Positions 1 to 17,049 of a stretch of 17,049 bases of DNA are shown in pieces; within the stretch, counting starts at the first letter, position 1, and the number at the start of each line of letters is the position of its first letter. Source of the stretch: a virus. Taxonomy: Duplodnaviria > Heunggongvirae > Uroviricota > Caudoviricetes. The notes beneath the pieces were generated by a model that did no database searches, was not told the DNA's origin, and was given only the letters and a program-made list of their open reading frames with translations. The DNA lies in IMG/VR virus record IMGVR_UViG_2671181094_000003, one strand, 5' to 3'. The position numbers were made by a program, and so were the translations under genes.

Positions 1-256
1 CGGCCAGCCATCCGTCATCCATATCACCACGTCAAAGGGTGACAGCAGGCTCATAAGACGCCCCAGCGTCGCCATAGTGCGCTCACCGAATACGTGCGCA
101 ACAACCGTCTTCCGGAGACTGTCATACGCGTAAAACAGCCAGCGCTGGCGCGATTTAGCCCCGACATAGCCCCACTGTTCGTCCATTTCCGCGCAGACGA
201 TGACGTCACTGCCCGGCTGTATGCGCGAGGTTACCGACTGCGGCCTGAGTTTTTTA
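1..256 (-). CDS. insB: IS1 InsB' reading frame, partial (runs out of the window); made as InsAB' transposase by -1 frameshift at the A6C motif
   Basis: Position inside IS1 downstream of insA. A6C run (minus-strand TTAAAAAACTC) at about 247-257. Coordinates approximate. Confidence 0.75.
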
Positions 257-506
257 AGTGACGTAAAATCGTGTTGAGGCCAACGCCCATAATGCGGGCT
301 GTTGCCCGGCATCCAACGCCATTCATGGCCATATCAATGATTTTCTGGTGCGTACCGGGTTGAGAAGCGGTGTAAGTGAACTGCAGTTGCCATGTTTTAC
401 GGCAGTGAGAGCAGAGATAGCGCTGATGTCCGGCGGTGCTTTTGCCGTTACGCACCACCCCGTCAGTAGCTGAACAGGAGGGACAGCTGATAGAAACAGA
501 AGCCAC
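231..506 (-). CDS. insA: IS1 InsA (transposition inhibitor/DNA-binding protein), 91 aa, GTG start
   Basis: Translation [40 protein letters not shown]... is the familiar IS1 InsA with its zinc-finger Cys motifs. Confidence 0.95.
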
Positions 507-561
507 TGGAGCACCTCAAAAACACCATCATACACTAAATCAGTAAGTTGGCAGCATCACC

Positions 562-766
562 CATGCCGGGCTAAAAATTTTTCAAATGAATCACGTTCAT
601 TCGCCTCAACTTTGAAATCACAGGTGAAAACGCGCAGAGAATGATTAAGTCCATTTGGACTTCGTTGCTCATAACCATCGCCAAATCTTACAGTTTTTAT
701 CGATGGTTTATTTTCTGTTTTCATTCCATCCTCTGGTAACCAGTGAAATTCTTCCGTATTAGCCAC
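562..766 (-). pseudogene. Lambda gpM-like minor tail protein, 5' fragment truncated by the IS1 insertion at 561/562
   Basis: N-terminus ...FHWLPEDGMKTENKPSIKTVRFGDGYEQRSPNGLN resembles the lambda gpM N-terminus (…VRKVRFGDGYSQRAPAGLN, from memory). The ORF runs straight into the IS1 terminal repeat. GTG start overlaps the tape-measure stop. Confidence 0.75.
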
Positions 767-3700
767 TTAACATTCCCCCATCACGTCGCATATTTAACAG
801 ATTGCCCTGCACCCGCTGATCAACCATCCCCATAAGTGCTTTTATTGCCTGAGGGCCAATCTCTCCATTCTGGCCGTCATTTTGAATAGTGATTTGGTAT
901 ACAGGGGCATAGGTAATATCTCCGCCTCCATTACCACTTTTACTATTAATAGCTCTGACACCAAGAGAACCATCGGAAGTTCGTGTTAATGGCATAATGG
1001 CTTCCGGACCAGCCTCACCAAAAACACCAGCCCCTTTTGCAAAAGCAAAAAATTGCGGGGAATCATAAATACCGTTCGAATACATGTTCAATGACGGAGA
1101 CTCATAAACACCGCCCTTTGCATTCGGAATAAATTTACTAATAGCACTCCCGATAGTTCCTAAAATCCCCCCAGAAGAACTGTTACTAATGCTGTCGAAA
1201 ATCCCAGTAATTGAAGCCTTTAATGCTATTCGACTAAGATCCGAAATCACGGAAGTAGCGAAAGAACGAAAATTTGCCTTGCCTGTCGTGACAAAATCAC
1301 CCAGCGCATCGGTCATTCCATCAAACATCTGAGTCGTGGTTGATTTTATCTGCTCACTGATATCCTTAGTGTCATCCAGCCAGTTATTGAATCCCTGGGA
1401 GGCACCACTAACCCAGTCTCCTGCCTGAATATCGAGCTGCTCGTTTTTCTGTCTGACAATGTCTTTTTCTCGTTCCAGAGCATCATTCAGAGCCTGCATT
1501 TTCTCCTGAAAAACATGATTTGACATCCCACGGGATTTATCTGCATAGTCACGTTCAAGTTGCAGACGCTGATTGTTATATTCACGTTCAATCCGCAGTA
1601 ATTCCTGCTGGCGTTGCTGATTTTTATCGCCAACCCCATAACCAGCAATCTGAATATCATACCCCTGTTGACGATTATCAATCGAAGCCTGCAATGAATC
1701 ACGCCATGCAGCTATTTCGGCGGATTCCTTGATTAGCCTGTTATTTTTTTCAATCGCAACATTTTTCTCCATCAACGCGGTTATTTCTTCCCGGTGTAAG
1801 AGAAGCGATTTCTGATCCTGGGTTAATTTCGATGACGGTCGTGACTCCAGGTTGGCAATCTGCTGACGCCACTTAACCAGTTCCTGTTCAGTGGAACTTA
1901 ATTTAACGGTTAATTCAGTTTGTGAACTTAGTAACGCATTCTGTTGATTCAGATGATCAATCATTCGTTGGGCAGCATCATCCGAATAACCTTTCGCCTT
2001 TGGTTGCTTTGGATCTTTATAACGCTCATTTATTTGAGCGATAAGATTATTATATTCTTCCTTTGAATACTGACTCTTTAGCTTTTCCAGTTTTGCAAGT
2101 TCACTAGCTCTCTGCTGCTCCCGGGTCTGATATTGTTTTGAAAAGGCATCTGCTCTCTGTCTGAGTTCAATTCCTTCCTGTTGTCGCTTGTTGTAATCGT
2201 TTATTGATGAATTTAGTACGTCCTGAGCAATTTTTTCTGCTTGAAGTGCGCCCAATTGCTGCTTTAATCGTGCCAGCCTTTTATTTTGAGCTCCGCCATC
2301 TCCAATGCCACCTAACCCGAAAACTCCGGGTCGGGTATTTTTTTCTATTTCATCAATTTGACGGAGAACATCTGAGATTTTTTGATCAAGGGAGGCCTCA
2401 CGGCCAATATCCAGCATGGAATCCCATGCCCATTTTGCGGAGTCTGCGACAGCTTTCCATGCAGTCTCAAGATAACCAAGATTTTCTTTAATCTGGTTGG
2501 TGCGCTGGATCATTGAGGATGAGTATGCTTCTGTCGCAATGCGGGCGGCCTCCTGCTGGTTCCCTTCATCCTGTAGCGCCTTAATCTGGTTATAAGTCGC
2601 AATTGTCAGAAAATGGTACTGATCATTAAGTTTTGATATGGCACTGACAGGATCCTTTGCAATTTCATTGAAGTCATTAACCAGTTGTTCGGTTGATATT
2701 CCTGTTACTTCGCTCGTTTTTACTATCGCTGTCGTCACTTGCTCCAGCGAACTGCTCGCTACCTTTCCCGAACGCACAAGCTGGTTTAATACTGCCGCCG
2801 CAGCGCCAGTTGTCGAATCAGCCGCATTCCCGGCACGTTGAGCTATATCGGCCAATTGCCCGCTGGTTGTCCCCAACTGATTTCCGGTAAGAATAAGAGA
2901 TTTATTAAATTCGTCCTGCTCCTGAGAGCCTTTATAGTAAGCCAGCCCTAAGACGCCAACGGCTGCTGCGGCCAGGGTAAAAGGATTAATTAATCCCAGC
3001 ACATAAGAACCAACACCTTTGATCGCCGGGCCAATCCCACCGAACATATCTTTTAGCTGGCCGCCCTGCTGCATTAACACCATAAAAGGCGACTGACCAG
3101 TGGACAACCCAACAACAATATCCGTCATTTGTGCAGGCAACATGCGCATAGCAAAAGCCGTTTGTTTTGCCGACATTCCGGTTTTGCTTAATTGAGATTG
3201 AGTAACCTCAAGCTCACTCCGCATAGCACGAAGTTTTCCAGAAAGTTCCTCATACATTTCAGGAGAGAGCATCCCCTTAGCTTTTGCTTCATTGAGCTGT
3301 TTCTGTTGTTCTACCAGACGATTAAAAGCAGTTCCGACAGGGTCAAGTTGAGCAATCAGACGTTGCAAAGCAGCAACCTGTTCATCATGCGCTTTTGCTG
3401 CTTCTCGCTCTGCCTGAGCCTCTCCGGTAAGCTCTCGCCGTGTTTCCTGTATTTTTCGGCTATAATTCTCAAACTGAGAACCATTTATTTTCCCGGATGC
3501 AAACGCAGCATTAAGTTCATCCTGCTGTTGTTCAAGATTTCTTAGCGCCGCAGCCAGAGGGTCGATCTTGTCCAGCATTCTTTGAAAGGCCTGAGCCTGC
3601 GCTTCCTGCTGGGCGGCAGCAAGTTTTCCGGCCTTCTCGGCTTCTCTCTGCGCTTGCGCAACCCCGCTCAATTCCTCTGTGGTTTCATTAAGTTTACGGA

Positions 3701-3992
3701 CAAGAAATTCATATTCTTCTTTATCAATAAGCCCTTTATCGAAAAATTTCTTTAATTCAGAATAGCGTCGACCGACAGTATCAATTGCGGCACCAACTGG
3801 ATCAATAGCTGCTTTTAATTTTGCGAGCGCGTTCTTCTCATCTTCTGTTGCCTTAGTCACTTTCCCTGCGCTATTTGCAGCAGTTTCCCCGGCCTGCGTC
3901 ATTTTGACTAATGAGGAGGTCAGATTGTCAGCATTATTTTTTGCTCCAGTGCTATCAATAATTATTGCGAGACGCGAGGTTTGCTCTGCCAT
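759..3992 (-). CDS. Tail tape measure protein, lambda gpH homolog, 1077 aa
   Basis: Uninterrupted 1077-aa ORF with AGGAG SD 9 nt upstream of the ATG. Segments [11 protein letters not shown]…[17 protein letters not shown] and the C-terminal …[14 protein letters not shown]…[10 protein letters not shown] match recalled lambda gpH motifs. Position follows the G/T chaperone pair. Confidence 0.92.
3164..3806 (-). repeat. Three tandem ~60-80 aa repeats in the tape-measure N-terminal region (residues about 63-277)
   Basis: Protein repeats start [14 protein letters not shown]…, [14 protein letters not shown]…, [14 protein letters not shown]…, each with a G-x-I/L…Y…KL…EL…AQA core. DNA coordinates derived from residue numbers. 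Confidence 0.6.
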
Positions 3993-4005
3993 TTATTAAA
4001 ACTCC

Positions 4006-4037
4006 TGACAACAAAAAACCCACCGCGAAGTGGGTTT
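4006..4037 (-). terminator. Candidate intrinsic terminator just upstream of the tape-measure SD
   Basis: Minus-strand RNA AAACCCAC-UUCGCG-GUGGGUUU followed by UUUGUUGU. Lies in a 165-bp non-coding gap between the T-frame stop and the tape-measure start. Confidence 0.45.
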
Positions 4038-4157
4038 CAGGCGACATAATAGTAGATATAGCGATTACGAGGCCACGCAATGCTTTTCTCCAGGAGCATC
4101 ATCGATTTAATTAAAGACACCATCACATCTCTGTAACAGAGTGTACGTAATTAACAA

Positions 4158-4478
4158 CTACACACACTGCTCCTGAAAATACTGGTCATCCAGTGCAAAG
4201 ATCACTGCTTCAAATTCATCGCGCTCAATCAATACCGGATGAGTGGCTAAATATTCATTTATCTCTGTCAGAGATAAAGGCAAAGGCACCCCAGCCATTC
4301 CAGCATAACGTCGGGCACGGGATATTACCGAATAGGCGTACAACAACTCCTTAAGCACCGGGTCTATTTCTGGTTCCGGTATCGGTGGCAACCTGAGTTT
4401 TTCTCGCTTCCATCTTGCCTTTTCCCCCCTTTCTCCCCCGAACTCCGATAACCACCGCTGGGCAGCTATGGCTTTTTT
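4158..4478 (-). CDS. Tail assembly chaperone T segment, expressed only as a G-T fusion by -1 frameshift (no independent start)
   Basis: The -1 frame from the heptamer at 4472-4478 is open through ...AIAAQRWLSEFGGERGEKARWKREKLRLPPIPEPEIDPV... to the stop at 4158. Matches the conserved G/G-T arrangement of long-tailed phages. Confidence 0.65.
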   Translation of the reverse strand, partial: KKAIAAQRWLSEFGGERGEKARWKREKLRLPPIPEPEIDPVLKELLYAYSVISRARRYAGMAGVPLPLSLTEINEYLATHPVLIERDEFEAVIFALDDQYFQEQCV

Positions 4479-4915
4479 ATCGTATCCTGCTTCTGCTGCT
4501 CTTTACCCTGGGCGATGCTGGCTGCTTCTGCAAGGATCTGCCAGTACAACTCTGGATTCTGCTTAAGCAGCGCGATCCCTCGTTCTGCCGTATATTCCAG
4601 TGCAACCTCAACACCATTAACCAGTTCACCAACCCCTTTCCAGTCTTTCAGCAGATAACGAGCGGCATTATCAATGAGTAAATCATCAACAGAATCCACC
4701 TCGGAAACCTTTGAAATATCAAACTCCTTCGTTCCGACGTGCAAACTGGCATCCATTTTCTCAATGTGGCGACGGATTAATGCATTACGGGAGCGATACT
4801 GATCGTTATCGCTGCTTGCCACCAACAGTTTTAACCCGTCTACAGGTTTTAAGTCCTTCATTGGCGTAAACCAGCGTTCTCCACCAATGATAATTTTCTG
4901 ATTAAGAATAAACAT
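4466..4915 (-). CDS. Tail assembly chaperone, gpG-like
   Basis: Position between major tail and tape measure. Ends at the slippery heptamer and TAG. Start placed at the second ATG (4915), which has a GAGG SD 6 nt upstream; the ORF-track start at 4927 is also possible. Confidence 0.7.
   Translation of the reverse strand: MFILNQKIIIGGERWFTPMKDLKPVDGLKLLVASSDNDQYRSRNALIRRHIEKMDASLHVGTKEFDISKVSEVDSVDDLLIDNAARYLLKDWKGVGELVNGVEVALEYTAERGIALLKQNPELYWQILAEAASIAQGKEQQKQDTIKKP
4472..4478 (-). other. Programmed -1 ribosomal frameshift slippery heptamer A_AAA_AAG
   Basis: Minus-strand ...ACG AUA AAA AAG CCA UAG: the heptamer A AAA AAG sits two codons before the G stop in the correct zero-frame phasing. 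Confidence 0.65.
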
Positions 4916-4975
4916 CCATAACCTCATTCAATGCGTCCCCCTGTAGGGCAGTACCACAGGAGGAATAACGGAAAA

Positions 4976-5938
4976 TCAACTAATCGCCTCAGCACTGGCT
5001 TTTGCGATCACGGCAGCCGGGGAATTTTTTTTTCTGGTTATCGTAGGTGCTTCATCTGCTGCGGTAATGCTCAATTGAACCTGGATAATGTCGCTATTAC
5101 CCCCATCAGGCCATTCACCTGACACCTGAACCTTCGGGAAACTGAAAGTGTATGCCCCCTCTCCATTCGAAAGCGTGAAGCTGAACGGAACTGTTTCTCC
5201 AGTCAGTGTTTTACTCCAGATTTCCCACGCGGCTTTAGACCATGAAAGCGTCACCGTACCGGACGGTGTAAAAGTAGTCGGAATATTTGCTCCTGCATAA
5301 GGCGAGCCAGTCCCGATACAACGCTGTGTCTGGAGTTTGTTATCGAACTGAATATCAAAACTGTCGATACAAAAACCGTTACCTCCGGCAACACCATTCA
5401 GGCTTACTGCTGAAACCTCCTTAAACGAATAACGTAGCTTTCCTGCACTATCCACAGGTTCGCCTTTGATAAAATTCGTATCATCGGCCTTTGATTCCCA
5501 GTCCAGTCCGGCAAAGGTTACGGTCGCTGTAATATCGCCGTCGTTAGGGATCTGCATTTTCCATGAGCCAACCTGCGCTCCTCTGACGACAGAGGCAATT
5601 CCGACATCGGACGCATAGGTCGCCAGAGAAAATGTTATTCGCTCATTCCCCATTGTCAGAGAATCGCCTGACCATTCCGCGCCGAAACAGGATGCAAGAA
5701 AATCATCATGTTGACCCCAGCGAAATTTGGTACCAACATCACCGCCGACATCCACAGTGCCAGGCGTCGCCCCCTGAGCCATCCGGGAGCCACCAATCTC
5801 ATTATTTTCGCCTTTATTCTGGGTGGGTTTTACTCCCCAGCTTGTGCGTTTTAATAAACTCCAGTCACCACTTGCTGGCGTAGTGCCTGCAACCGTCTCC
5901 CGGATAAATGCCGAGATAACCTTTGCACCTGAACTCAC
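4976..5938 (-). CDS. Major tail (tube) protein, 320 aa, GTG start
   Basis: Position immediately upstream of the G/G-T pair. Strong SD (TAGGAGG) 6 nt before the GTG. Gly/Thr/Ser-rich beta-type composition typical of tail tube proteins. Not similar to lambda gpV by eye. Confidence 0.75.
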   Translation of the reverse strand: MSSGAKVISAFIRETVAGTTPASGDWSLLKRTSWGVKPTQNKGENNEIGGSRMAQGATPGTVDVGGDVGTKFRWGQHDDFLASCFGAEWSGDSLTMGNERITFSLATYASDVGIASVVRGAQVGSWKMQIPNDGDITATVTFAGLDWESKADDTNFIKGEPVDSAGKLRYSFKEVSAVSLNGVAGGNGFCIDSFDIQFDNKLQTQRCIGTGSPYAGANIPTTFTPSGTVTLSWSKAAWEIWSKTLTGETVPFSFTLSNGEGAYTFSFPKVQVSGEWPDGGNSDIIQVQLSITAADEAPTITRKKNSPAAVIAKASAEAIS

Positions 5939-5964
5939 AGGAGCCTCCTATGTCATTAATTGCG

Positions 5965-6357
5965 CTAGAGCGCGCGATATGGAATTTGAAGATTAAGCTG
6001 GAACCAGCCATTCTTTTCGCCAACGGCTATTGAGGAAACAGCCTGGTAACTGAGACGATCGTCATCCTGAAACTCAAACAGTTCCCGCAATTTATCGGCT
6101 GTCTCAGTAATGAGTTTTGAACCAGAACCTGCGGGGACAAATAACTGAATAATGATTATCCCCGTGCGATAAACAATCGGCCCCGCGCCAATTTCATTAA
6201 CTCCAGCCTGCCCGGGAATATTACTTAACCGCGCCCAGATTAACTTACCGGAAGGATCGAACGTTGGCGCGTTCGGATACAATACGTCTTTTCCATCAAT
6301 AATCGTCTGTGCCGTCATTCTGGAAATAACCGTATTTCTGATTTCAGTAAACGTCAT
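5965..6357 (-). CDS. Putative tail terminator/tail completion protein, 130 aa
   Basis: Gene order (directly upstream of the major tail gene) and size. ATGA start/stop overlap with the upstream gene. Assignment by synteny only. Confidence 0.5.
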   Translation of the reverse strand: MTFTEIRNTVISRMTAQTIIDGKDVLYPNAPTFDPSGKLIWARLSNIPGQAGVNEIGAGPIVYRTGIIIIQLFVPAGSGSKLITETADKLRELFEFQDDDRLSYQAVSSIAVGEKNGWFQLNLQIPYRAL

Positions 6358-6734
6358 TTGTAAACCTGTAAAACACCATGAAAAGCGTTGGCATACACGC
6401 CAGTTGGCGCTTGTTGTGAATGACCGTTTTCAAGAGCCTCTGCATAAGGAAGGTTATTCTGGATATAAATAACTCCGTAATTTGCAGCTTTCGAAATAAC
6501 CCCGATCCCACGCTGAACAGCAATCGTACCGTTCGGATCCACGTTATCAGATATACCAATATCGGGATGCTGTAACGACACCAGGTTGTTATTTCTGAAA
6601 CGTCCGGTATCAACCGGAGCAGCAATATCAATAGCAGTAAGAATCTGAATAGCGATGTAGCGAATCTTCAGCCCTACATCTTCCTCAATCATCCCGGCAA
6701 ATATTGACGGTTCTATATCCCATGCCTTTGCCAT
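6354..6734 (-). CDS. Putative neck/tail-component protein, HK97 gp10-like, 126 aa
   Basis: Synteny plus the NNLPYAEALENG segment recalled as characteristic of the HK97 gp10-like family. TAAATG junction with the upstream gene. Confidence 0.5.
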   Translation of the reverse strand: MAKAWDIEPSIFAGMIEEDVGLKIRYIAIQILTAIDIAAPVDTGRFRNNNLVSLQHPDIGISDNVDPNGTIAVQRGIGVISKAANYGVIYIQNNLPYAEALENGHSQQAPTGVYANAFHGVLQVYK

Positions 6735-7118
6735 TTACGCTCTCCTTAACTGGATAGAGTAAACTGATGCGGAAGGATCTACACTTGCTGTAATTACCTC
6801 GTATCGTTGTAACTGCCTTGATACAGGATCATAAATCTCAATAATATGGTCGACAGCTGGTTTATCCGTAACCTCGCATACCAGAGCGGTTAATTTAAGG
6901 TCACCATGCAAAATATTAATCCCATCAATTCTGCCCAGCTTATAACGTGTCAACACGCCTCGCCCGGTATAGATTGCGGTGGATTCGCCGCCAGTTTCCG
7001 TCACAGGATCCCAGTGCCGGTGCGTAACGTAAGAACCAGAAAAATCACTCACGGCGTCCGCTAAATCCTCATCAAAAGCAGCGGCAACCTCTGACTGAAT
7101 CTCTTCACGAAGCCCCAT
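6735..7118 (-). CDS. Putative head closure/head-tail joining protein, 127 aa
   Basis: Synteny between the capsid and tail genes. TAATG overlap with the upstream gene. Confidence 0.45.
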   Translation of the reverse strand: MGLREEIQSEVAAAFDEDLADAVSDFSGSYVTHRHWDPVTETGGESTAIYTGRGVLTRYKLGRIDGINILHGDLKLTALVCEVTDKPAVDHIIEIYDPVSRQLQRYEVITASVDPSASVYSIQLRRA

Positions 7119-7513
7119 TATCCCCCCCTCACAACCCTGACTTGTGAGCGACTAAGTCCGTACGGTTTCAGCAGTGCTATCGCAAGCTGTAAATCGGGTT
7201 CAAGCAATGCAGTGCTGTTTGCTGGCAACTCAGAAAATGATTTCGATACACTGACCCCGTCAGCCGACACGGCTTTACTGATAACAACGCCAGAATCATT
7301 TTTCTGCTGAAACAACTTACCGAATGAGGCAATTCTGGCTGCATATGCTCCCGCAAGTTTTACCTCTTCCGGAATACGGGATGGGTTAATTTTCAGGTTG
7401 AAGCCATTAAGCCAGGCATTAGCCATTAAAACAGCTTTATTTTTAGCGTTCTCACTCGTCCAGGCGTTCCCAAACGCATTATCAACGTCATCACAGGTCA
7501 CGTAAGTGATCAT
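7118..7513 (-). CDS. Putative head-tail connector/adaptor protein, 131 aa
   Basis: Synteny: first mid-sized gene after the capsid gene. Tightly packed with neighbours. Confidence 0.45.
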   Translation of the reverse strand: MITYVTCDDVDNAFGNAWTSENAKNKAVLMANAWLNGFNLKINPSRIPEEVKLAGAYAARIASFGKLFQQKNDSGVVISKAVSADGVSVSKSFSELPANSTALLEPDLQLAIALLKPYGLSRSQVRVVRGG

Positions 7514-7516
7514 GTG

Positions 7517-7693
7517 TTACTCCTGAGTTTTCCAGCCCATAGCCTTCCAGTTGTCAACTTCATCAGGATGAACATTAGCGATAGTTGGTGCGCCGGGAAA
7601 CATCTGATAATCGGTCACCATAACCACTAACTCAATTTGCGTTTTTTGTGCGGCTTCACGCTGTGCTCTTTGCTCTTTAGTTAATCCGGCCAT
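7517..7693 (-). CDS. Small hypothetical protein, 58 aa (MAGLTKEQRAQREAAQKTQIELVVMVTDYQMFPGAPTIANVHPDEVDNWKAMGWKTQE), absent from the ORF track
   Basis: Hand-translated ORF that fills the gap between the capsid-gene terminator and the connector gene. G-rich SD-like run before the ATG; its stop is 3 nt from the next start. Confidence 0.35.
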   Translation of the reverse strand: MAGLTKEQRAQREAAQKTQIELVVMVTDYQMFPGAPTIANVHPDEVDNWKAMGWKTQE

Positions 7694-7702
7694 ATGCCCC
7701 CC

Positions 7703-7725
7703 ATTAAAAATGGGGCCGAAGCCCC
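7703..7725 (-). terminator. Intrinsic terminator downstream of the major capsid gene
   Basis: Minus-strand GGGGC-UUCG-GCCCC followed by AUUUUUAAU, starting about 10 nt after the capsid stop codon. Confidence 0.5.
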
Positions 7726-7735
7726 GTTTGAATGT

Positions 7736-8875: not shown

Positions 8876-8973
8876 AATTAAATATTCCTTAAAAATTTGC
8901 GTAATTGTGAATAGATGGAGTAATGAGCTATCCAGCCCTGACACCAGCTCCCATCCGGAAGCTGACAAATGTG

Positions 8974-9738
8974 TTAATCAACGATTGTGATACCGTCTTT
9001 CAATGCGTTTTGCTTACCTGCAACATCCAGTGCATCAAAAGCAGAGCGTTTCATCGTTTTCTGACCAATATCATGCTGTGTCGGACGGGAGCCGCCGCCA
9101 TTGTTGCCACTGGCTTTCAGGATGTAGTCTTTCTGAGGGTAATTTTCGACAAGGAACTCCAGCGCCTCATCAAACTGCGCCAGTTCGCCAGGCTTCGCGC
9201 GGGAATAAATTTTGTTGCCGGAAGCGTCATAAGCAACGATCCTCCCTTCTTCCACTTTGAATGCCTGCCCGAAGCGGGCTTGTAATAAATCTGCCGGGAT
9301 CGCAATTTTATCGGCAATATATTTTGAACCCGCAAAACTACCGCCAATCATAGAATCGTAAAGCTGCTTCTCCAGCATCTGAGAGCGTTGCTTTTCTTCA
9401 TCTAATTGCTGCTGAAAATTTTTCGTAATTTCTGCCTTAACCTGGTCAACCTGTCCCGCATCGAGCAGCTTTTTCTGGTCGATTTTTGACAGCATTTCCA
9501 GTGCCTCGATCGCCTTCTTCGGGTCTTCGATAGCGGCAAACTTAGCCAGTTTTTCCTCTGCAGCTTCTTTAGCCAGGCGATGATTTTTTGCCTCGCCATT
9601 AAGCTCTGTAATTTTTTTTGTCGCCAGCGGTGCATCGAAGCCAATTTCTTTACCATCGTCGTGCACATAAACTGGCAGGCCAGCAGTATCAATTTCTGCG
9701 TATTGTTTTCCGTTAATCTCGACCGTTTTCAGTTTCAT
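8974..9738 (-). CDS. Putative scaffolding protein, ~254 aa from the ATG at 9738
   Basis: Position between the head morphogenesis and capsid genes. Highly charged, helix-forming composition (AKEAAEEKLAKFAAIEDPKKAIEALEM…). The ORF-track start at 9810 would overlap the upstream terminator, so the internal ATG is preferred. Confidence 0.55.
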   Translation of the reverse strand: MKLKTVEINGKQYAEIDTAGLPVYVHDDGKEIGFDAPLATKKITELNGEAKNHRLAKEAAEEKLAKFAAIEDPKKAIEALEMLSKIDQKKLLDAGQVDQVKAEITKNFQQQLDEEKQRSQMLEKQLYDSMIGGSFAGSKYIADKIAIPADLLQARFGQAFKVEEGRIVAYDASGNKIYSRAKPGELAQFDEALEFLVENYPQKDYILKASGNNGGGSRPTQHDIGQKTMKRSAFDALDVAGKQNALKDGITIVD

Positions 9739-9795
9739 ATTAGTACCTGGTTTAAGTCTTCCGACAGTTACGCTGCTCACCATCCGGATCGCAGC

Positions 9796-9822
9796 AATAA
9801 AAAAGGCCACCCGAAGGTAGCC
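9796..9822 (-). terminator. Intrinsic terminator between the head morphogenesis and scaffold genes
   Basis: Minus-strand GGCUACC-UUCG-GGUGGCC (7-bp stem including one G-U pair) followed by UUUUUUAUU, about 20 nt after the upstream stop codon. Confidence 0.6.
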
Positions 9823-9842
9823 TGTTGTAATAAATGATTTAT

Positions 9843-10958
9843 TTAAATCCCTGCTTTTCTGAATACCTGTGCATCACGCTCACGGAGCTGCTTCAGCGTC
9901 AGCCATTCGCCTTTATCGGTGTAAAATTCATCTGGCGACATACCACCATCCCGAATCAGCTTTGCTCGGGTTTCCCCCACAATCTGTTTTTGTCTGGTGT
10001 AAGGCTGACGCAAAAACCATTCCCTGTAGGTTGTATCTCCGGCCACCACGCCATCCATGCTGGCCCGCTCAGCCGGGGAAATATCGCGAACATCAATACC
10101 CAGTTCCTTCGCTGATTTCAGAATGAACGTTTCCGTTGAGCGGCAGCAGAAATGAATTTTTCCCGGCCCCTGCAAATAAGGCACGCTGTGACCTACAGGT
10201 TTATTATTCAGCGTATATTTGAGGCGATCCCTGATTCGACATTGTGGCGTAGTACGATTATCAAGCGTTGATAACCATTGCTTACCCTTAATCAAATCAT
10301 TATTCGCGCTGGCAAAACTCTCACGGGCAGTAGCAGCAAGATGTCCAACCGCTGTTTTTGCAATGCTGGCCGCATTAGCCCGGCTCATCTGCAATGCACC
10401 ATCCTGAAATCCCTTACTGACATGTCCCCGAATTTTTCTTGCGATCTGCTCATTGGTATCCCCCAGCAAAAAACCCTGACGCACTGTATTTGTTATGCGT
10501 CTGAGCCGATCCGCCTCAAGATCTGAGGCCCACTCACTGAGCAGTCGTCCCTGAAATGGTCGCGCCATTGCAGCGGCATAAAGTGCATCAGGAGAGATAC
10601 CAACCAGAGGGTGAACATCAGCAACAAAATCAGGTAGCATAGAATCAAACAGACTTAACTGATAACCAGCCTCATAAATTGCCAGCTCGTTCAGCTCTCC
10701 GGAGAGACTGGTAAACATGCTGTTAATAGCAGTGCGGTTAACCTCTCTGACGCTCGCCAGAAGTGACTCCAGGCGCTTAACGGTAAAACTACCTGGATCG
10801 AGGCTGTCCAGTGCTATCAGCAGGCGAGCAGTAAGTTCCGCATCGCTGTCATTCAGTATTTTCACCATTCTGGCAGCCACGCCAGTGCTATAGCGGGATA
10901 TCCAGACTGCATGAGCAATTGATTCATCACGCAGCCGTTCATTCACGGTTTGCATCAT
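9843..10958 (-). CDS. Head morphogenesis/minor capsid protein, Mu F / SPP1 gp7-like, 371 aa
   Basis: Position directly after the portal gene, overlapping its 3' end by 20 nt. Size and the conserved-looking ...TTPQCRIRD... region fit this family (recalled). Confidence 0.7.
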   Translation of the reverse strand: MMQTVNERLRDESIAHAVWISRYSTGVAARMVKILNDSDAELTARLLIALDSLDPGSFTVKRLESLLASVREVNRTAINSMFTSLSGELNELAIYEAGYQLSLFDSMLPDFVADVHPLVGISPDALYAAAMARPFQGRLLSEWASDLEADRLRRITNTVRQGFLLGDTNEQIARKIRGHVSKGFQDGALQMSRANAASIAKTAVGHLAATARESFASANNDLIKGKQWLSTLDNRTTPQCRIRDRLKYTLNNKPVGHSVPYLQGPGKIHFCCRSTETFILKSAKELGIDVRDISPAERASMDGVVAGDTTYREWFLRQPYTRQKQIVGETRAKLIRDGGMSPDEFYTDKGEWLTLKQLRERDAQVFRKAGI

Positions 10959-12345
10959 TGATTTCCATCAGCATTACACTCTGATTTTTTAATTCATCGA
11001 TCACTTCCTCTGGACGGGAATCCTGATCGATAAATTTCAACGCCTGCAACACCCGAACCGCATCAATCTGACGTATATCACCGCCCTGACGCAATGACTG
11101 AACAGCCAGCGCGGAGGATGAGTCAAACACCTGGGCAGATACATCCAGTTCAGTGCGCACATCCACATTGCCACCGCAACTCTCTCCGATCCATTCCGCC
11201 ATTATCTGGAGAATATTATCGAGGGCATCTTCGAGGGAGTTCGCCATTGTATAAAGCGGCGAGTTTTCCTGCATTCGCTCTTCATTAGTCTGATCAACAG
11301 ATTTGGTGGATGTATTTTCAGCACGCAGAAGTTTAGCGCCGGCATGACGCATCTGATTTTCCAGCTTCTCAAGTGATGTTTCGCCAGATTCTATCGCTGC
11401 GCCACTATGTTCAACATATTCGAGGCCATTTTTTGTTCTGTCCTCAAAAATCGTAGCGGTGGATGCACCAACCGTCAGTTCTTCATTCCTGTCCAGCCCG
11501 TAGGCCACCAGCAATGGAACGCGGGCAACATGAAGAATATTGTCCTGCTCGCTCTGGCTTTGCCAGTGCTTGATATTCAGCAAGCCAAGATTAAGCAATG
11601 GCGGTGTACCACGCATAAATCCTGTTTTCTTCGTGTACAGTGTTACCAGAGGAATATCATCACGGCTGGTATTCCATGACTCATGAAGCGTCCAGACAGA
11701 TTCGCCATTAGTGCCTTCGCTACGTCGATAAATTTCAACTCGACGGGGCATAATATGGCGGATCTGCTCCACCTTCTTCTGCCCGAAATCATCACCATCA
11801 ATAATGATGACCTCTTTTATACGCAAATCAGTGAGAACAACTTTCCCTTTTTCAACTTTCGATTTCCATCCAATAACCTGGCGTGGATTCAGCATCGTAA
11901 CGTACGGACGACCACCGGTCGCGTTTTCATCGGCTTTTGTCCGAATCTCTTTCATATCCGTTCGTGGATAGTCCACCAGCGCATGTGCCACACCATACTG
12001 AAATGCGAGGCTGAAAAATTGCTGCGCCCACACATCCAGTCGGCTCCCCTCCATGTCGATATTTTCTGCATATTCCCTGATTTTTGCCGGCGTTTCCTCA
12101 CTCAATACTGTCGGCTCTGCAAATATGCGCCCAATATTTTGCTTGATGCTTTCTTCATACACAGGAAGTAGCGTAGCCACAGACAGGCGTTTTTTATAAG
12201 CGTCTTCATCTTCGTTAGGCCATTTTGGGAGATAATTTTCCCCCTGCCTGCGCATTTCAAGCGTACCGCCCATCAGTGCGTCGTTAATATCCCACGCCTC
12301 CAGCATATCGTTATAGTCGAGGTTGGGTGTTGATATATCAGCCAT
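10939..12345 (-). CDS. Portal protein, 468 aa
   Basis: Position immediately downstream of the large terminase (TAA, 2 nt, then ATG). Size typical of portal proteins. Confidence 0.75.
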   Translation of the reverse strand: MADISTPNLDYNDMLEAWDINDALMGGTLEMRRQGENYLPKWPNEDEDAYKKRLSVATLLPVYEESIKQNIGRIFAEPTVLSEETPAKIREYAENIDMEGSRLDVWAQQFFSLAFQYGVAHALVDYPRTDMKEIRTKADENATGGRPYVTMLNPRQVIGWKSKVEKGKVVLTDLRIKEVIIIDGDDFGQKKVEQIRHIMPRRVEIYRRSEGTNGESVWTLHESWNTSRDDIPLVTLYTKKTGFMRGTPPLLNLGLLNIKHWQSQSEQDNILHVARVPLLVAYGLDRNEELTVGASTATIFEDRTKNGLEYVEHSGAAIESGETSLEKLENQMRHAGAKLLRAENTSTKSVDQTNEERMQENSPLYTMANSLEDALDNILQIMAEWIGESCGGNVDVRTELDVSAQVFDSSSALAVQSLRQGGDIRQIDAVRVLQALKFIDQDSRPEEVIDELKNQSVMLMEINDANRE

Positions 12346-12347
12346 AA

Positions 12348-13658
12348 TTAAATCCGAAGTGATGTGCCTCTTCCGGTCGGTTTGACAATAGGGAATTGCT
12401 TAACGATGAAATAACCTCCGGCATCATTCGGGTGATCATTGCCAGATTTTTTATCAGGCTCCCCCTTCTCATCCCAGACCTGTTGCTCCAGAGATTCGGC
12501 ATATAACGGGCAACGCTTCACATTAACTTTATAGCGACGCTCACCATTGGCATTGCAGAACATTGCATTCATTGAGTTAACGCGATCTTTTACTGGCGGG
12601 TTCGAGCTGTTCACCACAACGTTAAAACCAGCCTGCTTAAGCTGGGCTATATCCGTCGTACTTGCGTTACTTGATTTTCTGGAATCCCCGGAAGCATCTG
12701 GATAAATATAAATTTCCCTCACTTTCCGGTAATCATTCCCATCATACAGCCAGAAGCGTTCTTTAATGATGCGGATCATATCCGGCGTATCGTAGGCATT
12801 GATGATTTCAGTTACCGCACATGGAAGCCCCAAACGCAGCACATGGACGATTCCCGCCATCTTTCCAACGTTAAAATCCATCCCAATATAAATCGGCTCC
12901 CCTGGCTGCTCCACTTCTTCGCAATTATTCAGTTTCCGGTCAAACTGATGGTAAACAGTACCACTTGTCAGGTTAGTAAACTGTCCTCGAAGATAGGCTT
13001 TAATCAGCTCTGGAGGGTATGATTCAAGAAGCGAAGGAATGTAATCTGCTGGCAGGTTCTTTTCATTATCGAAAGTAGATGCCTGCACCAGACCATACAG
13101 TGAGGCCAGCTCTGTTTTTTCACGCACGGCTTTAACAAACTGCTCGTAGACAAATTTGAATCCTTCCGGCGTGGTTGTAACGTCAATACCGTTGCGAAGT
13201 CCATCAATCTTATAACGCATACGTGCAATTATCTTGCGCCACGCCGTTCTGGCTTTTTCCTTCGGCAAAATGTCCAGTTCATCCACCAACGCATTACCAA
13301 TTTTGAAACCGACGATCGTTTGTGGCTTCTCCATCGATCTGCAGATAGTGGTTCCCCGATACTGGCGTCCGTAATAAAAGTGAACCTCTTTATTTCCCTC
13401 ATTAATTTTTACGTTCAATCCCCAGTCAGCAGCAACTTCTTCCACTGTAGGGTAAAAAATATCGCGAATTTGGGGATACGTTGGCGCAAAATATCCCTGA
13501 TTTATACCTGGATGCTCCCAAATCCCCTTGCATATGCCGCCACACCCAACCCATGTTTTGCCCGAGCCAAAACCAGCAATATAGGCTTTAAATTTATGGG
13601 GCATTGAAAGAAATCGCGCCTGAGGCACATTAAGCGTCGGAGAGATCATCTTCATCAC
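12348..13658 (-). CDS. Terminase large subunit, about 435 aa
   Basis: Walker A-like GFGSGKTW near the N-terminus. Position between the small terminase and portal. Start is one of three clustered ATGs (13658/13655/13649) just after an AAGGAG SD, overlapping the small-terminase 3' end. Confidence 0.9.
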   Translation of the reverse strand: MMKMISPTLNVPQARFLSMPHKFKAYIAGFGSGKTWVGCGGICKGIWEHPGINQGYFAPTYPQIRDIFYPTVEEVAADWGLNVKINEGNKEVHFYYGRQYRGTTICRSMEKPQTIVGFKIGNALVDELDILPKEKARTAWRKIIARMRYKIDGLRNGIDVTTTPEGFKFVYEQFVKAVREKTELASLYGLVQASTFDNEKNLPADYIPSLLESYPPELIKAYLRGQFTNLTSGTVYHQFDRKLNNCEEVEQPGEPIYIGMDFNVGKMAGIVHVLRLGLPCAVTEIINAYDTPDMIRIIKERFWLYDGNDYRKVREIYIYPDASGDSRKSSNASTTDIAQLKQAGFNVVVNSSNPPVKDRVNSMNAMFCNANGERRYKVNVKRCPLYAESLEQQVWDEKGEPDKKSGNDHPNDAGGYFIVKQFPIVKPTGRGTSLRI

Positions 13659-14724
13659 TCCTTACTCTGGCATCAACCACATTAATTTTGATCGCCACAG
13701 GCTGGGGATGTTCATTATCTTCCACCGTTTCGATCTCTTTGCGCAGCTTCTGGTTTTCCATTCTGCGCCGTTCAATTTCCAGTTCCTGTAGCCGCTTATC
13801 TGCACATAAAGCCCCGCCAGCAGAAAGCAAACGCAACAATTCACGCCGGGCGGCAGCCTTATCCTCCAGCAGGATCTCAACGCCGAATTTTCCGAATTTT
13901 GCCCCTGCATATAATTGCCGCGCATCCCCATCAAGCAGAGTGGTATCAGCCATATAAAGCTGTCCCGTTCCCTCACCGCAGCACTTCGGGCAGTCCGGAT
14001 TGGGTATGGCGTTATCAACAAAGCCGAGGCCTCCATATTCCGGTTCGGGTTTGCCATCTCTGGAAGCCTGCGCCGCTGCCTTGTCGAATTCTGCTATATC
14101 GCGCCACTGGTAGAGATGATTCTCGCCCCAGCAATAACGGCAGTTAACACGGCGAAATTGTGCAAGCTGATTGGGGTCGGCCAGGACAATGGCCATCAAC
14201 TGACTCACTAGTAAATCCAGGTCTGCGGTATAGCGTTTCTGGTACTGATTGCGGAAGTAGCTGATAGCGCGAAAAACCCTGGCATTTCTAAGCATACGAC
14301 TGGCGTTGCTGTTAGCTGTCGCACCTTGCCCCTCATAACCGGCTAGTCGGTACGCCTCTGTCGGCTTTTTACCCTGAGCAACAAGCATCGCAAACTTAGC
14401 CTGCTGGTCAGAAATGCCGAATTCATCGGGACAGAACGAAAATTCCTCCGCGTCGCCCTCATTCAGGCCCGCATCGAATACTGGCTTTTTTTCCTGAGAT
14501 TTTTCGTTCCGCTTTTGTGCAGTCTGCGCAGATTTTTTCTGCGCACTTTTTTGCGCAGTTTTGCGCATTTCTGTCTGCGCATTTTTCGGAGTTTTTTTGA
14601 TGTAACGACGGGCTGTTGCGTAATTCAGTCCCCTTGCTTCACACCATGCCACCGGAGATATACCGGAGCGGGTGTATTCAGCAATATACTCCTGCTGCAA
14701 CGCCCCCCAGTCCGGTCTGCTCAT
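13630..14724 (-). CDS. Terminase small subunit, unusually long (364 aa): N-terminal HTH, Lys-rich linker, Terminase_2-like core, Cys4 cluster
   Basis: The segment ISDQQAKFAMLVAQGKKPTEAYRLAGYEGQGATANSNASRMLRNARVFRAI matches the recalled small-terminase signature (Q..F…TEAY..AGY…A…LL.N..V..AI). Position is directly upstream of the large terminase. Confidence 0.75.
   Translation of the reverse strand: MSRPDWGALQQEYIAEYTRSGISPVAWCEARGLNYATARRYIKKTPKNAQTEMRKTAQKSAQKKSAQTAQKRNEKSQEKKPVFDAGLNEGDAEEFSFCPDEFGISDQQAKFAMLVAQGKKPTEAYRLAGYEGQGATANSNASRMLRNARVFRAISYFRNQYQKRYTADLDLLVSQLMAIVLADPNQLAQFRRVNCRYCWGENHLYQWRDIAEFDKAAAQASRDGKPEPEYGGLGFVDNAIPNPDCPKCCGEGTGQLYMADTTLLDGDARQLYAGAKFGKFGVEILLEDKAAARRELLRLLSAGGALCADKRLQELEIERRRMENQKLRKEIETVEDNEHPQPVAIKINVVDARVRSDEDDLSDA
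14525..14581. repeat. Five copies of the palindromic hexamer TGCGCA interleaved with T-tracts, inside the small-terminase coding region
   Basis: TGCGCA at 14525, 14540, 14552, 14562 and 14576, with T-runs of 4-7 nt between them. Encodes the low-complexity AQK-rich linker (…KTAQKSAQKKSAQTAQK…). Confidence 0.5.
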
Positions 14725-14727
14725 CAG

Positions 14728-14937
14728 TTAGTCCTGATTTTTATCCACCCTGAGTAGTTCGCGCAGAGCAAAGGCATCCCCTTTTCTGGCAAGCTTAAAC
14801 AATGCCGCTCGTAACTCGGCTTCACCTTTCGCTCTGCCCTTACGGATGGCCGCATAAAAATCTGTCATTGCTTCCCGATTTTCTTTCAGTCGGTTCAGAT
14901 CAACATCCAGAACGTCAGCGATTTGTTGTGCAGTCAT
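14728..14937 (-). CDS. Small hypothetical protein with a predicted helix-turn-helix, 69 aa from the ATG at 14937
   Basis: ORF MTAQQIADVLDVDLNRLKENREAMTDFYAAIRKGRAKGEAELRAALFKLARKGDAFALRELLRVDKNQD. Overlaps the 3' end of the upstream gene. The ORF-track start at 14979 would overlap by 65 nt. Confidence 0.45.
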   Translation of the reverse strand: MTAQQIADVLDVDLNRLKENREAMTDFYAAIRKGRAKGEAELRAALFKLARKGDAFALRELLRVDKNQD

Positions 14938-15847
14938 CCGGCACGCTGCCAGAGACTCGACTTTCGAATACGGAATCATTTGTCACCCCCATTGATATGC
15001 AGGGTGTCTTCTTCCTGTATTTTTCGTGAAGGATTTTTACTGCAGCGTTGTTCCAGGTGACCTGATGGTGAATGCGTTTATGGCTGGCACCCATCAGTGA
15101 AATTTTTACGCACGACGGCGCATACATGACGGAGTAAAAACTTTTAACGTAGGTTCCGGAATCCAGATACAGCTCGGTCATTCCGCCGCTGTTTTTCTGC
15201 GTCTGTTTCTGCCCTAACTGGACAGCACCGATCGTCATAAACAATTCACCACAGCGACCGAGATTCGTGTACGTATTCACATCCTCGTTAATGCGCCCCA
15301 TGAATGAGAACGGTCGATCAACCGAACAGATAAAGCTGTTCATTGCCTTGCGTTTCACCCACGAAGCATGGCCGCCATTGTCACCAAGAAAATCCCCGCC
15401 CTGCGACATAGCGATGGAAAGAGCAGGTATTGATTCGTAGTACGCCAGCATTTCAGAAAGGATCGCATCCAGTTTCCTTATCGGAAAATAGGCCTGGTCA
15501 TAGTTGCGATCCACCCGAAACTGGAACTCGTGATAATCATCATCGAGCTGAATGAAGTATTTACACCCGACCAGTTTTGCCAGGTCAAAACAGGCATTAC
15601 GGGCGTAAAAAATTGAGCGGCGGTCACAGAAATTATCGGCTTCGTCAAAACGACTGGCGATATCGGCTTTGGAAAACACCAGCACCTGTTCACCAAATTC
15701 AGCCATGTACTGATGCCGTGTCTTATCTTCATCATCAACAACGATAAAAATTTTCCCGGTATAGCCAGCACGACGCAACGTCCGGTAAGTCAGAACTTTG
15801 TCTGGTCGCCCGTGAGTCAGAATAAAGGCGCAAAAATCATCACGCAT
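14915..15847 (-). CDS. Hypothetical protein, ~310 aa, with GT-A glycosyltransferase-like motifs; substrate unknown
   Basis: ATG at 15847 has an AGGAGG SD and overlaps the ParB-like stop in ATGCGTGA. Motifs FILTHGR…IFIVVDDEDKT and YFIQLDDDYHE resemble the GT2 signatures (…PTYNR…VVDDGS.D, DxD). No obvious transmembrane segment. Assignment from motifs only. Confidence 0.5.
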   Translation of the reverse strand: MRDDFCAFILTHGRPDKVLTYRTLRRAGYTGKIFIVVDDEDKTRHQYMAEFGEQVLVFSKADIASRFDEADNFCDRRSIFYARNACFDLAKLVGCKYFIQLDDDYHEFQFRVDRNYDQAYFPIRKLDAILSEMLAYYESIPALSIAMSQGGDFLGDNGGHASWVKRKAMNSFICSVDRPFSFMGRINEDVNTYTNLGRCGELFMTIGAVQLGQKQTQKNSGGMTELYLDSGTYVKSFYSVMYAPSCVKISLMGASHKRIHHQVTWNNAAVKILHEKYRKKTPCISMGVTNDSVFESRVSGSVPDDCTTNR

Positions 15848-16631
15848 ATTCCTCCTCCTCACCACCATGCATGATCTCCACCATGCGCTGCGTCATCCGG
15901 ACAAATCCATTTTCAATAGCCTGCTGATAATCAATGATCACCAGCGCCGACTCCTCGAAAAAACACTGAATTTCAGCGGGGGCGTGAGCGTAATAGTCCG
16001 CAATTCTGCTGAAATTAAACACCGTGTGACGTTCTGCCGCACACAGGAGGAATTTCTCAATATCAGGCTCAAGGGACGCCGAACGTATCCGGCTGATCAG
16101 CTCCTGAGTTTTCGTATCGTCGTACAGTTCACTGATATCCGGTTTACCGCCCGACGGCTCATAAACAGGCGTATCAATTTTCGTCGTATACGGCTCCTCC
16201 TCATTTCCTGTACCGGGCACAACATCCGTCAACAGTTCATCAATTTCTGTCGGGATGAAGCCTGTCAGGGAGACATCAAAATCAGCATTGATTAGGTCCG
16301 ACAGCTCCATCCGCAACAGATCTTCATCCCAGCCAGCATTCATCGGCAGGCGATTATCTGCCAGGCGGTACGCCTTTTTCTGCTCATCCGTCAAGCCAGA
16401 CAGAACAATGACCGGAACAGAATCCATTTTGAGCATTTCAGCCGCCATAACACGACCGTGACCCGCAATAATTTCGCCCTTTTCGTCAATCAGCACCGGA
16501 TTAGTCCAGCCGAATTGCTTAATACTTTCTACCAGTTGTGCCACCTGCTCAGGGCTGTGCGTCCTGGCGTTGTGCGCATACGGTGACAATTCTTGTAATG
16601 GGCGATAGACTATCTTTAATTTCTCGCTCAT
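15840..16631 (-). CDS. ParB-like N-terminal-domain (ParB/Srx fold) protein, 263 aa
   Basis: N-terminal region …YRPLQELSPYAHNARTHSPEQVAQLVESIKQFGWTNPVLIDEKGEIIAGHGRVMAA… has the ParB-N pattern with a G-H-G-R motif. AAGG SD 6 nt before the ATG. Confidence 0.8.
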   Translation of the reverse strand: MSEKLKIVYRPLQELSPYAHNARTHSPEQVAQLVESIKQFGWTNPVLIDEKGEIIAGHGRVMAAEMLKMDSVPVIVLSGLTDEQKKAYRLADNRLPMNAGWDEDLLRMELSDLINADFDVSLTGFIPTEIDELLTDVVPGTGNEEEPYTTKIDTPVYEPSGGKPDISELYDDTKTQELISRIRSASLEPDIEKFLLCAAERHTVFNFSRIADYYAHAPAEIQCFFEESALVIIDYQQAIENGFVRMTQRMVEIMHGGEEEEYA

Positions 16632-16640
16632 ACAGCCTTG

Positions 16641-16682
16641 CTTTATGAATAAAACGCACCCCAGCAGCCAGTGCTACTGGGG
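16641..16682 (-). terminator. Candidate stem-loop/terminator-like structure in the leader upstream of the ParB-like gene
   Basis: Minus-strand CCCCAGUAGC-ACUG-GCUGCUGGGG (10-bp stem with one G-U pair) followed by UGCGUUUUAUU. The U-tract is offset 3 nt from the stem. Confidence 0.3.
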
Positions 16683-16752
16683 ACGGAGGTGTTGCTGGTA
16701 AAGTTAGGTATTGGATCAATGAGTGAGTCAACATAATATTAAACTCACAATT

Positions 16753-17049
16753 GGTGATGCTGCCAACTTACTGATTTAGTGTATGATGGTGTTTTTGAGG
16801 TGCTCCAGTGGCTTCTGTTTCTATCAGCTGTCCCTCCTGTTCAGCTACTGACGGGGTGGTGCGTAACGGCAAAAGCACCGCCGGACATCAGCGCTATCTC
16901 TGCTCTCACTGCCGTAAAACATGGCAACTGCAGTTCACTTACACCGCTTCTCAACCCGGTACGCACCAGAAAATCATTGATATGGCCATGAATGGCGTTG
17001 GATGCCGGGCAACTGCCCGCATTATGGGCGTTGGCCTCAACACGATTTT
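16753..17049 (+). mobile_element. IS1 insertion sequence, partial copy cut by the window end; inverted relative to the left copy
   Basis: IS1 terminal repeat GGTGATGCTGCCAACTTACTGAT at 16753-16775; the downstream sequence is the reverse complement of the left copy. Confidence 0.95.
16808..17049 (+). CDS. insA: IS1 InsA, partial (C-terminus beyond the window)
   Basis: GTG start at 16808; the DNA is the reverse complement of the left-copy insA region. Confidence 0.9.

Follow-up and report, generated by a model that had tools for sequence, protein, structure and literature searches.

How does a nearly complete set of phage packaging, head and tail genes come to lie between two inverted copies of IS1, on DNA that displays none of the lysis, regulation, integration and tail-tip genes of the phage? 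The question is raised by IMG/VR record IMGVR_UViG_2671181094_000003, a stretch of 17,049 nucleotides analysed here as a whole and referred to as the window. A preliminary description of it had offered three readings, namely an IS1 composite element carrying structural genes, the product of IS1-mediated deletion or inversion in a prophage, and a module kept under selection. The features of the window are as follows.

1..561, minus strand: left IS1, partial, IS1 positions 1-561 of 768, from reading of the sequence
231-506, minus strand: insA of the left IS1, with the 5' part of insB next to it and then the contig end
557..766, minus strand: minor tail protein M, truncated to 68 of its 112 codons and closed by a Gly and a stop codon from the IS1 terminus
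759..3992, minus strand: tail tape measure protein, 1077 aa, full length (99.0% identity, no gaps; TMP_2, TMP_4, Tape_meas_lam_C)
4158..4927, minus strand: tail assembly chaperone pair, G/GT type (PHROG 313, tail assembly chaperone; Phage_YdaY)
4466-4927, minus strand: YdaY-like G ORF, part of the G/GT pair
4976..5938, minus strand: tail tube protein, 320 aa (Phage_tube_2, 9e-32; reference prophage comparison)
5965..7693, minus strand: neck/connector genes, whole block (reference comparison and profile matches)
5965-6357, minus strand: tail terminator
6354-6734, minus strand: tail completion/Neck1
6735-7118, minus strand: head closure
7118-7513, minus strand: head-tail adaptor
7517-7693, minus strand: 58-aa ORF
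7736-8944, minus strand: major capsid protein, P22-coat type (RefSeq version, 379 aa)
8974-9810, minus strand: DUF6651 scaffold-like protein
9843-10958, minus strand: Mu-F-like minor head protein
10939-12345, minus strand: DUF4055 protein at the expected place of the portal gene, a putative portal by gene order
12348-13649, minus strand: terminase large subunit
13630-14724, minus strand: terminase small subunit
14728-14937, minus strand: 69-aa ORF, head of the late region
14915-15847, minus strand: TAGT/GREB1-like glycosyltransferase, head of the late region
15840-16631, minus strand: ParB_N protein, the full-length YnaK, head of the late region
16632..16752, no strand: remnant of the trkG-ynaK spacer, from comparison with reference prophages
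16753..17049, plus strand: right IS1, partial, IS1 positions 1-297 of 768, from reading of the sequence, then the contig end

Compared with a reference Rac-type prophage, all 18 genes from ParB/YnaK to the tape measure were full length and free of gaps, with 97.7-100% amino acid identity, and the -1 frameshift site of the G/GT pair was intact, with the slippery sequence A AAA AAG at 4478-4472 and the -1 frame open from 4502 to 4158. The nineteenth phage gene, M, was cut after codon 68. Thus, the module that had been described as otherwise intact is so for these 18 genes, and gene M, of 112 codons, is broken by the left IS1.

The inner 16,191 bp was found collinear and about 99.5% identical in 694 of the 5,426 complete E. 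coli genomes, with trkG as its neighbor on one side and the tail genes M-L-K-I-J on the other. Upstream, these relatives carry int, recET, racR, ydaS/T, Q, the lysis genes, trkG and ynaK, and downstream M-L-K-I-J. The early genes and an integration at ttcA, which the relatives have, would lie off the contig in the case of the window. This sequence comparison identifies the 16.2 kb segment as the late region of a common Rac-type lambdoid prophage. The comparison with IS1-free relatives, which the preliminary description had proposed, located the breaks, since homology to these genomes ended exactly at 562 and 16752, that is, at the IS1 termini. Breaks placed exactly at IS1 termini are as expected of transposition and unlike those of a chimeric join.

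Both IS1 copies are indeed inverted relative to each other, as had been noted, and neither is complete. The 23-bp IRL terminus, GGTGATGCTGCCAACTTACTGAT, was present without change at 539-561 on the minus strand and at 16753-16775 on the plus strand, so that an inverted repeat links the two ends of the window and the IRL of each copy points inward, toward the phage genes. The left copy encodes an InsA identical to INSA1_ECOLX, with the Pfam domains Zn_ribbon_InsA and HTH_Tnp_IS1 (PF03811, PF12759), and its insB product, at the contig end, matched DDE_Tnp_IS1 (PF03400). The right copy extends into insA only, where an 80-aa product with InsA domains reaches the contig end.

Why the window should begin and end in IS1 became apparent from its origin. 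It is identical in sequence to the whole of contig CXYS01000066.1 (17,049 bp) of the E. coli draft assembly GCA_001269125.1, a short-read contig with both ends inside IS1, an element that E. coli genomes carry in many copies (a median of 19 matching places each). A repeat of this kind is impassable for assemblers, which is why the contig has IS1 at either end; at least three further short-read contigs with IS1 at the gene M site likewise break off after 27-53 nt of it. The IS1 "bracket" is therefore the ordinary, expected look of a repeat-broken contig. Since window and contig have the same limits, the genes for lysis, regulation, integration and the tail tip are off the contig and are not shown to be absent. 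The main argument of the preliminary description, that IS1 marks out both ends and these functions are missing, fails for the same reason: it describes one whole draft contig rather than a genome. A general caution follows for any window that is a whole short-read contig, where ends that fall in an insertion sequence, like the apparent lack of functions past them, are to be expected from assembly and are not biology.

The two junctions were then compared for their occurrence elsewhere. The gene M fragment at the left junction matched Phage_min_tail (Pfam) at 7e-18 over profile positions 1-65 of 108, and the truncated product is WP_249437710.1, which NCBI assigns to Escherichia coli. The left junction itself was present in an ENA metagenome contig, with 0 mismatches in 2,257 nt, and also in a Logan contig (samples ERZ28658995 and SRR15095427), and in another sample IS1 lies at the same gene M nucleotide in the reversed orientation. 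In the 5,426 complete E. coli genomes, no alignment crossed this junction into IS1 in either orientation of the element, and exact scans of the viral contigs and genome contigs collections found none. At the right junction, the trkG stop codon of reference prophages lies 16 nt past position 16752. With the IRL oriented as in the window, no alignment ran into IS1 at this place in the 5,426 complete genomes, exact scans of the viral contigs and metagenome contigs collections found no copy, and a pattern scan of the genome contigs collection for the predicted far side of the right IS1 gave no match. Among the contigs listed, a limited set on which its absence elsewhere rests, the right junction occurred in this contig only, and those with the identical ParB allele, the window contig excepted, had trkG directly upstream with no IS1 between. 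The different distributions of the left and right junctions suggest that they arose in separate events.

Taking these results together, we consider that two plain IS1 insertions into a Rac-type prophage, each with an 8-9 bp target duplication and with the remainder of the prophage on other contigs, explain the window about as probably as all other readings combined. Two IS1 copies would have transposed into one prophage on separate occasions, one into tail gene M, at a site apparently struck by IS1 more than once, and the other into the spacer, 16 nt past the end of trkG. IS1 being a multi-copy repeat, the assembler would have been blocked at each copy and the contig would end inside IS1 on either side. 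Left off the contig would be, toward the early region, trkG, lysis, Q, replication, immunity, recET and int, and toward the tail tip, M'-L-K-I-J-lom-stf. A plain insertion on the left predicts, on the far side, the IRR end of IS1 (...AAGTTGGAGTCATTACC), then CCCGGCATG and the rest of gene M (AAGGCTATAAATC...; AAGGCTATAAATCTTTTTTTTGG), and this part of the gene would lack an in-frame start where it meets IS1. On the right, it predicts the trkG 3' flank ...ATATATGGCTGATTTAT and AATTGTGAG, followed by GGTAATGACTCC as the IRR terminus. The left IS1 breaks tail gene M, and the late operon is interrupted by the right IS1 a little upstream of the packaging genes. The loss of M should render the prophage tail-defective, and from what holds for lambda, a lambda-type tail tip would probably not be assembled from this locus with gene M cut; the right IS1 may be polar on late transcription. 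In biological terms, the window would represent one more IS1 strike on a Rac-type prophage, a case of the decay for which E. coli prophages are well known.

A reading that we regard as quite possible, at somewhat less than an even chance, takes one or both IS1 junctions as the end points of an adjacent deletion or rearrangement linked to IS1. Either intramolecular transposition or recombination of one IS1 copy with another would have removed the early, lysis and trkG side, the tail-tip side, or both, leaving the late module as a remnant that IS1 connects to other DNA, and the effect at the contig edge would be the same. What keeps this reading alive is the state of IS1 in sibling complete genomes, together with the literature, in which IS-driven decay of E. 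coli prophages has been described (PMC6379469). Five of the eight IS1 copies in or near this type of prophage were plain insertions with 8-9 bp duplications, which speaks against deletion, while the remaining three had no duplication and lay beside a truncated prophage gene, followed by recE or non-prophage DNA. These three are all at the trkG/lysis side: in ES8 the order is truncated trkG-IS1-recE and in JNQH497 truncated lysozyme-IS1-recE, both with no target duplication, and in GTEN_23 the IS1 sits 10 nt inside the 3' end of trkG, 27 nt from the right junction of the window, followed by crcB and iuc genes, again with no duplication. Given these three copies, IS1-mediated deletion would still be a live option for the window. 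At the right end, a plain insertion therefore has only a moderate prior, because three of eight sibling copies have no duplication and that of GTEN_23 is 27 nt away. On the opposite side, the tail-tip genes M-L-K-I-J were kept, left of the tape measure, in 7 of the 7 sibling genomes inspected, and this counts against a loss there.

The other readings fared worse. Inversion of the 16.2 kb segment, by homologous recombination between the IS1 copies or by one intramolecular replicative transposition that also made the second copy, appears very unlikely to us. The copies are mutually inverted, as inversion needs, and the inner junctions would be the same before and after it. A single replicative event, however, predicts identical copies, and the left and right copies showed 1 mismatch in their 297 shared bases, which might itself be an effect of the assembly consensus; it also predicts that the junctions occur together, whereas the left one was present in other samples and the right one, among the contigs listed, here only. 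Composite transposons are known in which the two IS1 copies are directly repeated or inverted, as in Tn9 and Tn1681, and in this respect an IS1 pair that moves, or once moved, the late genes as a unit has its precedents. Against it, the sequence at the two inner ends follows the native Rac-type neighborhood exactly, both junctions are absent from the complete E. coli genomes, the viral contigs and one further collection each, the two differ in distribution, and the cargo has no obvious selectable function; nor did such an IS-cargo-IS unit turn up in a second genomic context. The composite element proposed earlier is thus unsupported, and we hold it to be extremely improbable. Equally improbable in our estimate is that the late module has been selected as a domesticated particle-forming unit after the loss of the other phage parts. 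The 18 intact genes, the intact G/GT frameshift site and a dN/dS below 1 agree with selection, but gene M is broken, and the dN/dS values of the module genes, 0.26-0.67, are based on 14-64 differences, too few to address the period since IS1 arrived, on which they are silent. Because near-identical modules sit in the apparently complete prophages of hundreds of genomes, the intactness of the module reflects recent descent; intact ORFs are expected soon after insertion, and selection need not be invoked. A wider version, in which the inverted IS1 pair and the 16.2 kb module form one unit kept intact for host use, be it a composite transposon or an invertible cassette that uncouples the structural genes from the late promoter, is only a shade less improbable. 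More probable than such a unit or cassette is a recurrent hot spot for IS1 at the gene M site (CCCGGCATG, with A/T runs on either side), where Rac-type prophages would be disabled repeatedly in independent lineages. On the whole, what the preliminary description observed is confirmed in part, and we cannot tell which of its interpretations is right.

Among known arrangements, Tn1681 resembles the window in having inverted IS1 copies around a DNA segment. The window differs from Tn9 and Tn1681 in that its cargo is in its native phage context, with no sign of movement as a unit. E. coli LR-29-1 (NZ_AP027515.1) comes closer, as two inverted IS1 copies, IRL inward, enclose most of the late region; there, the copies are 19.4 kb apart and occupy other sites, one inside the tape measure gene and the other past trkG by about 5 kb, and both are plain insertions, as an 8-9 bp duplication at each of them demonstrates, whereas the window displays the inner IS1 sides only. 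ES8, JNQH497 and GTEN_23 share with the window an intact late module that has IS1 at its trkG/lysis edge, and unlike the window they expose the far side, which is recE or crcB/iuc DNA and has no duplication. The cryptic Rac of K-12 is without most of the module and retains ynaK and ydaY as remnants (RefSeq annotation). A fuller Rac-type version, collinear with the module of the window and 99.5% identical to it, is "Escherichia phage vB_EcoS-666R9" (ON470614.1; PHASTER-predicted), although the "phage" records that match the module are PHASTER predictions from draft genomes rather than isolated virions and are no proof of particle formation. The order ynaK(ParB)-TAGT-terS-terL-portal-MuF-scaffold-capsid-connector-tube-G/GT-tape measure-M, with the portal assigned putatively, is common to the window and Rac-type prophages, whose tail side in complete genomes continues as L-K-I-J-lom-stf-tfa. 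What sets the window apart from these complete prophages is an IS1 in gene M after codon 68 and an IS1 16 nt downstream of the position of the trkG stop.

The window was identified, through an exact match of its truncated M protein (WP_249437710.1, named Escherichia coli by NCBI), as the entire contig CXYS01000066.1 (17,049 bp) of draft assembly GCA_001269125.1, and both loci returned from this contig matched it base for base. Sequence comparison joined the window ends by an inverted repeat. On reading the sequence, we located the left terminus of IS1 (IRL, GGTGATGCTGCCAACTTACTGAT) twice, on the minus strand (539-561) and on the plus strand (16753-16775), with the IRL ends of both copies pointing inward. 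The two copies differ at 1 of 297 shared bases; Pfam identified InsA and the beginning of InsB, and INSA1_ECOLX has the same InsA sequence as the window's.

Features of the window, from left to right
1-561, minus strand: left IS1, partial (IS1 positions 1-561), cut by the window end
Left part of the module, minus strand: tail tube, G/GT chaperone pair, 1,077-aa tape measure, and gene M codons 1-68
Left of the coat protein, minus strand: four connector and neck proteins
Minus strand, in right-to-left order: Mu-F-like head protein, DUF6651 scaffold-like protein, and P22-type coat protein
Minus strand: DUF4055 protein, occupying the expected position of the portal gene
Next leftward after the 69-aa ORF, minus strand: terminase small and large subunits
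14728-16631, minus strand, rightmost in the module, in right-to-left order: ParB_N protein, TAGT-type glycosyltransferase, and 69-aa ORF
16753-17049, plus strand: right IS1, partial (IS1 positions 1-297), cut by the window end

In a search with the whole window, E. coli genomes had a median of 19 matching places each (maximum, 88), nearly all of which were IS1. Short-read assemblies break at multi-copy repeats, and three other short-read contigs over the same gene M site end 27 to 53 nt into IS1. The preliminary description had taken both ends to be defined by IS1 and the lysis, regulation, integration and tail-tip genes to be missing; since the window is one whole draft contig and IS1 is multi-copy, these statements apply to the contig ends and not to the genome. 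Two points are highly probable: the IS1 bracket is a contig-edge effect, and the bracketed DNA is a late region of Rac type struck by two copies of IS1.

The inner segment was 99.3 to 99.7% identical to sequence in many complete E. coli chromosomes, and in 694 of 5,426 complete E. coli genomes one place spanned at least 80% of the window. In complete genomes, the matching segment belongs to a Rac-type lambdoid prophage, whose late region it forms, with trkG, lysis genes, Q-region genes, ydaV/ydaU, ydaS/ydaT, racR, and sieB to the right of the module and M, L, K, I, J, lom, and tail fibre genes to its left. The full order from int, recT, and recE to M-L-K-I is seen in ON470614.1, a prophage predicted in silico (PHASTER) from a draft genome rather than an isolated phage. 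Rac is found in about 69% of sequenced strains; it is incomplete in K-12, and fuller versions occur in other strains (PMC6379469).

The IS1 copies enclose 16,191 bp in which every gene is on the minus strand. The description of this module as otherwise intact held for the 18 complete genes, all of them full length and gap-free with 97.7 to 100% amino acid identity to the reference prophage, but not for minor tail protein M, which ends at residue 68 of 112. In the G/GT-type tail chaperone pair (4158-4927, minus strand), the -1 slippery site A AAA AAG is intact at 4478-4472 and the -1 frame stays open between 4502 and 4158; K-12 ydaY is a remnant of the chaperone G ORF. The ParB_N protein is full-length YnaK, and the TAGT/'GREB1-related' glycosyltransferase, which resembles DNA glycosyltransferases, matched Pfam PF20691 (3e-35) and PHROG 842 (6e-104), with no TET/JBP partner in the window. 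The ParB_N/TAGT/69-aa trio, which opens the late operon just upstream of terS, was kept in every Rac-type late region seen. In two contigs with the same ParB allele (L015 and L016), the trio is followed almost directly by an opposite-strand YdaY-family ORF, with tape measure and J fragments, an arrangement reminiscent of K-12, as if structural genes had been internally deleted or rearranged.

The junctions were examined with 124-nt probes spanning each, searched against complete E. coli genomes. Phage-side matches were obtained in 678 records for the left probe and 1,567 for the right, and no alignment entered IS1: all ended exactly at 562 and 16752, so both junctions sit precisely at the IS1 terminus, a pattern that favours real transposition over chimeric joining. 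Each junction was absent from all 5,426 complete E. coli genomes searched. The left IS1 splits gene M between ...AGCCCGGCATG and AAGGCTATAAATC..., and the right IS1 is in the spacer between trkG and ynaK, 16 nt beyond the trkG stop codon position. Exact scans were empty for the left junction in the viral and genome collections and for the right junction in the viral and metagenome collections, and the predicted far-side junction of the right IS1 had no match in an exact scan of the genome collection.

The left junction recurred in the same orientation in two places: an ENA metagenome scaffold that matches over 2,257 nt with 0 mismatches, and a Logan contig. The first ~27 nt of Logan contig L005 (window 2111-2137) carry 15 clustered mismatches, which probably arose at the end of the assembly graph and do not reflect true variation; its remaining 1,549 nt are identical. 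In metagenome contig L006 (640-711; window 553-570), IS1 follows the identical gene M nucleotide (...AGCCCGGCATG) in the opposite orientation, the right terminus (IRR) abutting M, and the prophage allele differs by two SNPs. This suggests that IS1 entered the target independently there; thus, the gene M site looks like a recurrent target, or hot spot, of IS1. This 9-bp site is G/C-rich and flanked by A/T runs, and either IS1 orientation yields the same 69-aa truncated protein. Among the matches listed, the right junction occurred only on the window's own contig, and trkG lies directly upstream, without IS1, in the other listed contigs with the identical ParB allele. These differing distributions, together with the single base at which the copies differ, suggest that the junctions arose in two IS1 events rather than in one that created both.

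As a stand-in for the window's outer flanks, we used eight IS1 copies in or next to the same prophage type in seven complete genomes, all seven of which have the tail-tip genes left of the tape measure. Five copies are plain insertions, each flanked by an 8- to 9-bp direct duplication. Strain LR-29-1 carries two inverted copies 19.4 kb apart, IRL inward as in the window and each with its own duplication, and this pair has the same look as the window and is fully ordinary. We give about an even chance to the reading that the window likewise comes from a prophage complete but for two plain insertions. The other three copies lack a duplication and have a truncated prophage gene on one side.

IS1 copies without a duplication
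L018, 20483-21250: E. coli ES8, followed by recE
L019, 19218-19985: E. coli GTEN_23, 27 nt from the window's right junction, followed by crcB and aerobactin genes
L020, 20968-21735: E. coli JNQH497, followed by recE

In these three cases, the early and lysis regions seem to have been lost through IS1-associated deletion or rearrangement; the losses appear independent, with the structural module left intact. That such an event affected one or both ends of the window, likelier the trkG side, is a substantial possibility, somewhat short of even. Inversion between the IS1 copies is improbable, and a composite transposon is very improbable. We regard as equally improbable that selection maintained the late module: intact ORFs need no selection. 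Just 14 to 64 coding substitutions separate the window from its relatives (dN/dS, 0.26 to 0.67), a small divergence that fits recent descent from a phage that is active or was so until recently.

Gene M is broken irrespective of the outer flanks, which by analogy with lambda should keep tail tips from assembling. Late transcription that enters from the lysis/trkG side may also be subject to a polar effect of the right IS1. The analysis is chiefly of cautionary value, since windows that match draft contigs can routinely be expected to look "bracketed" by IS elements. The exact insertion sites are new only in being absent from the complete genomes searched, and they represent strain-level variation, not a new kind of element. 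Overall, the finding is already known: IS1 and Rac-type prophages are familiar, and so are the contig breaks that repeats induce and the insertions and deletions that IS1 causes in prophages.
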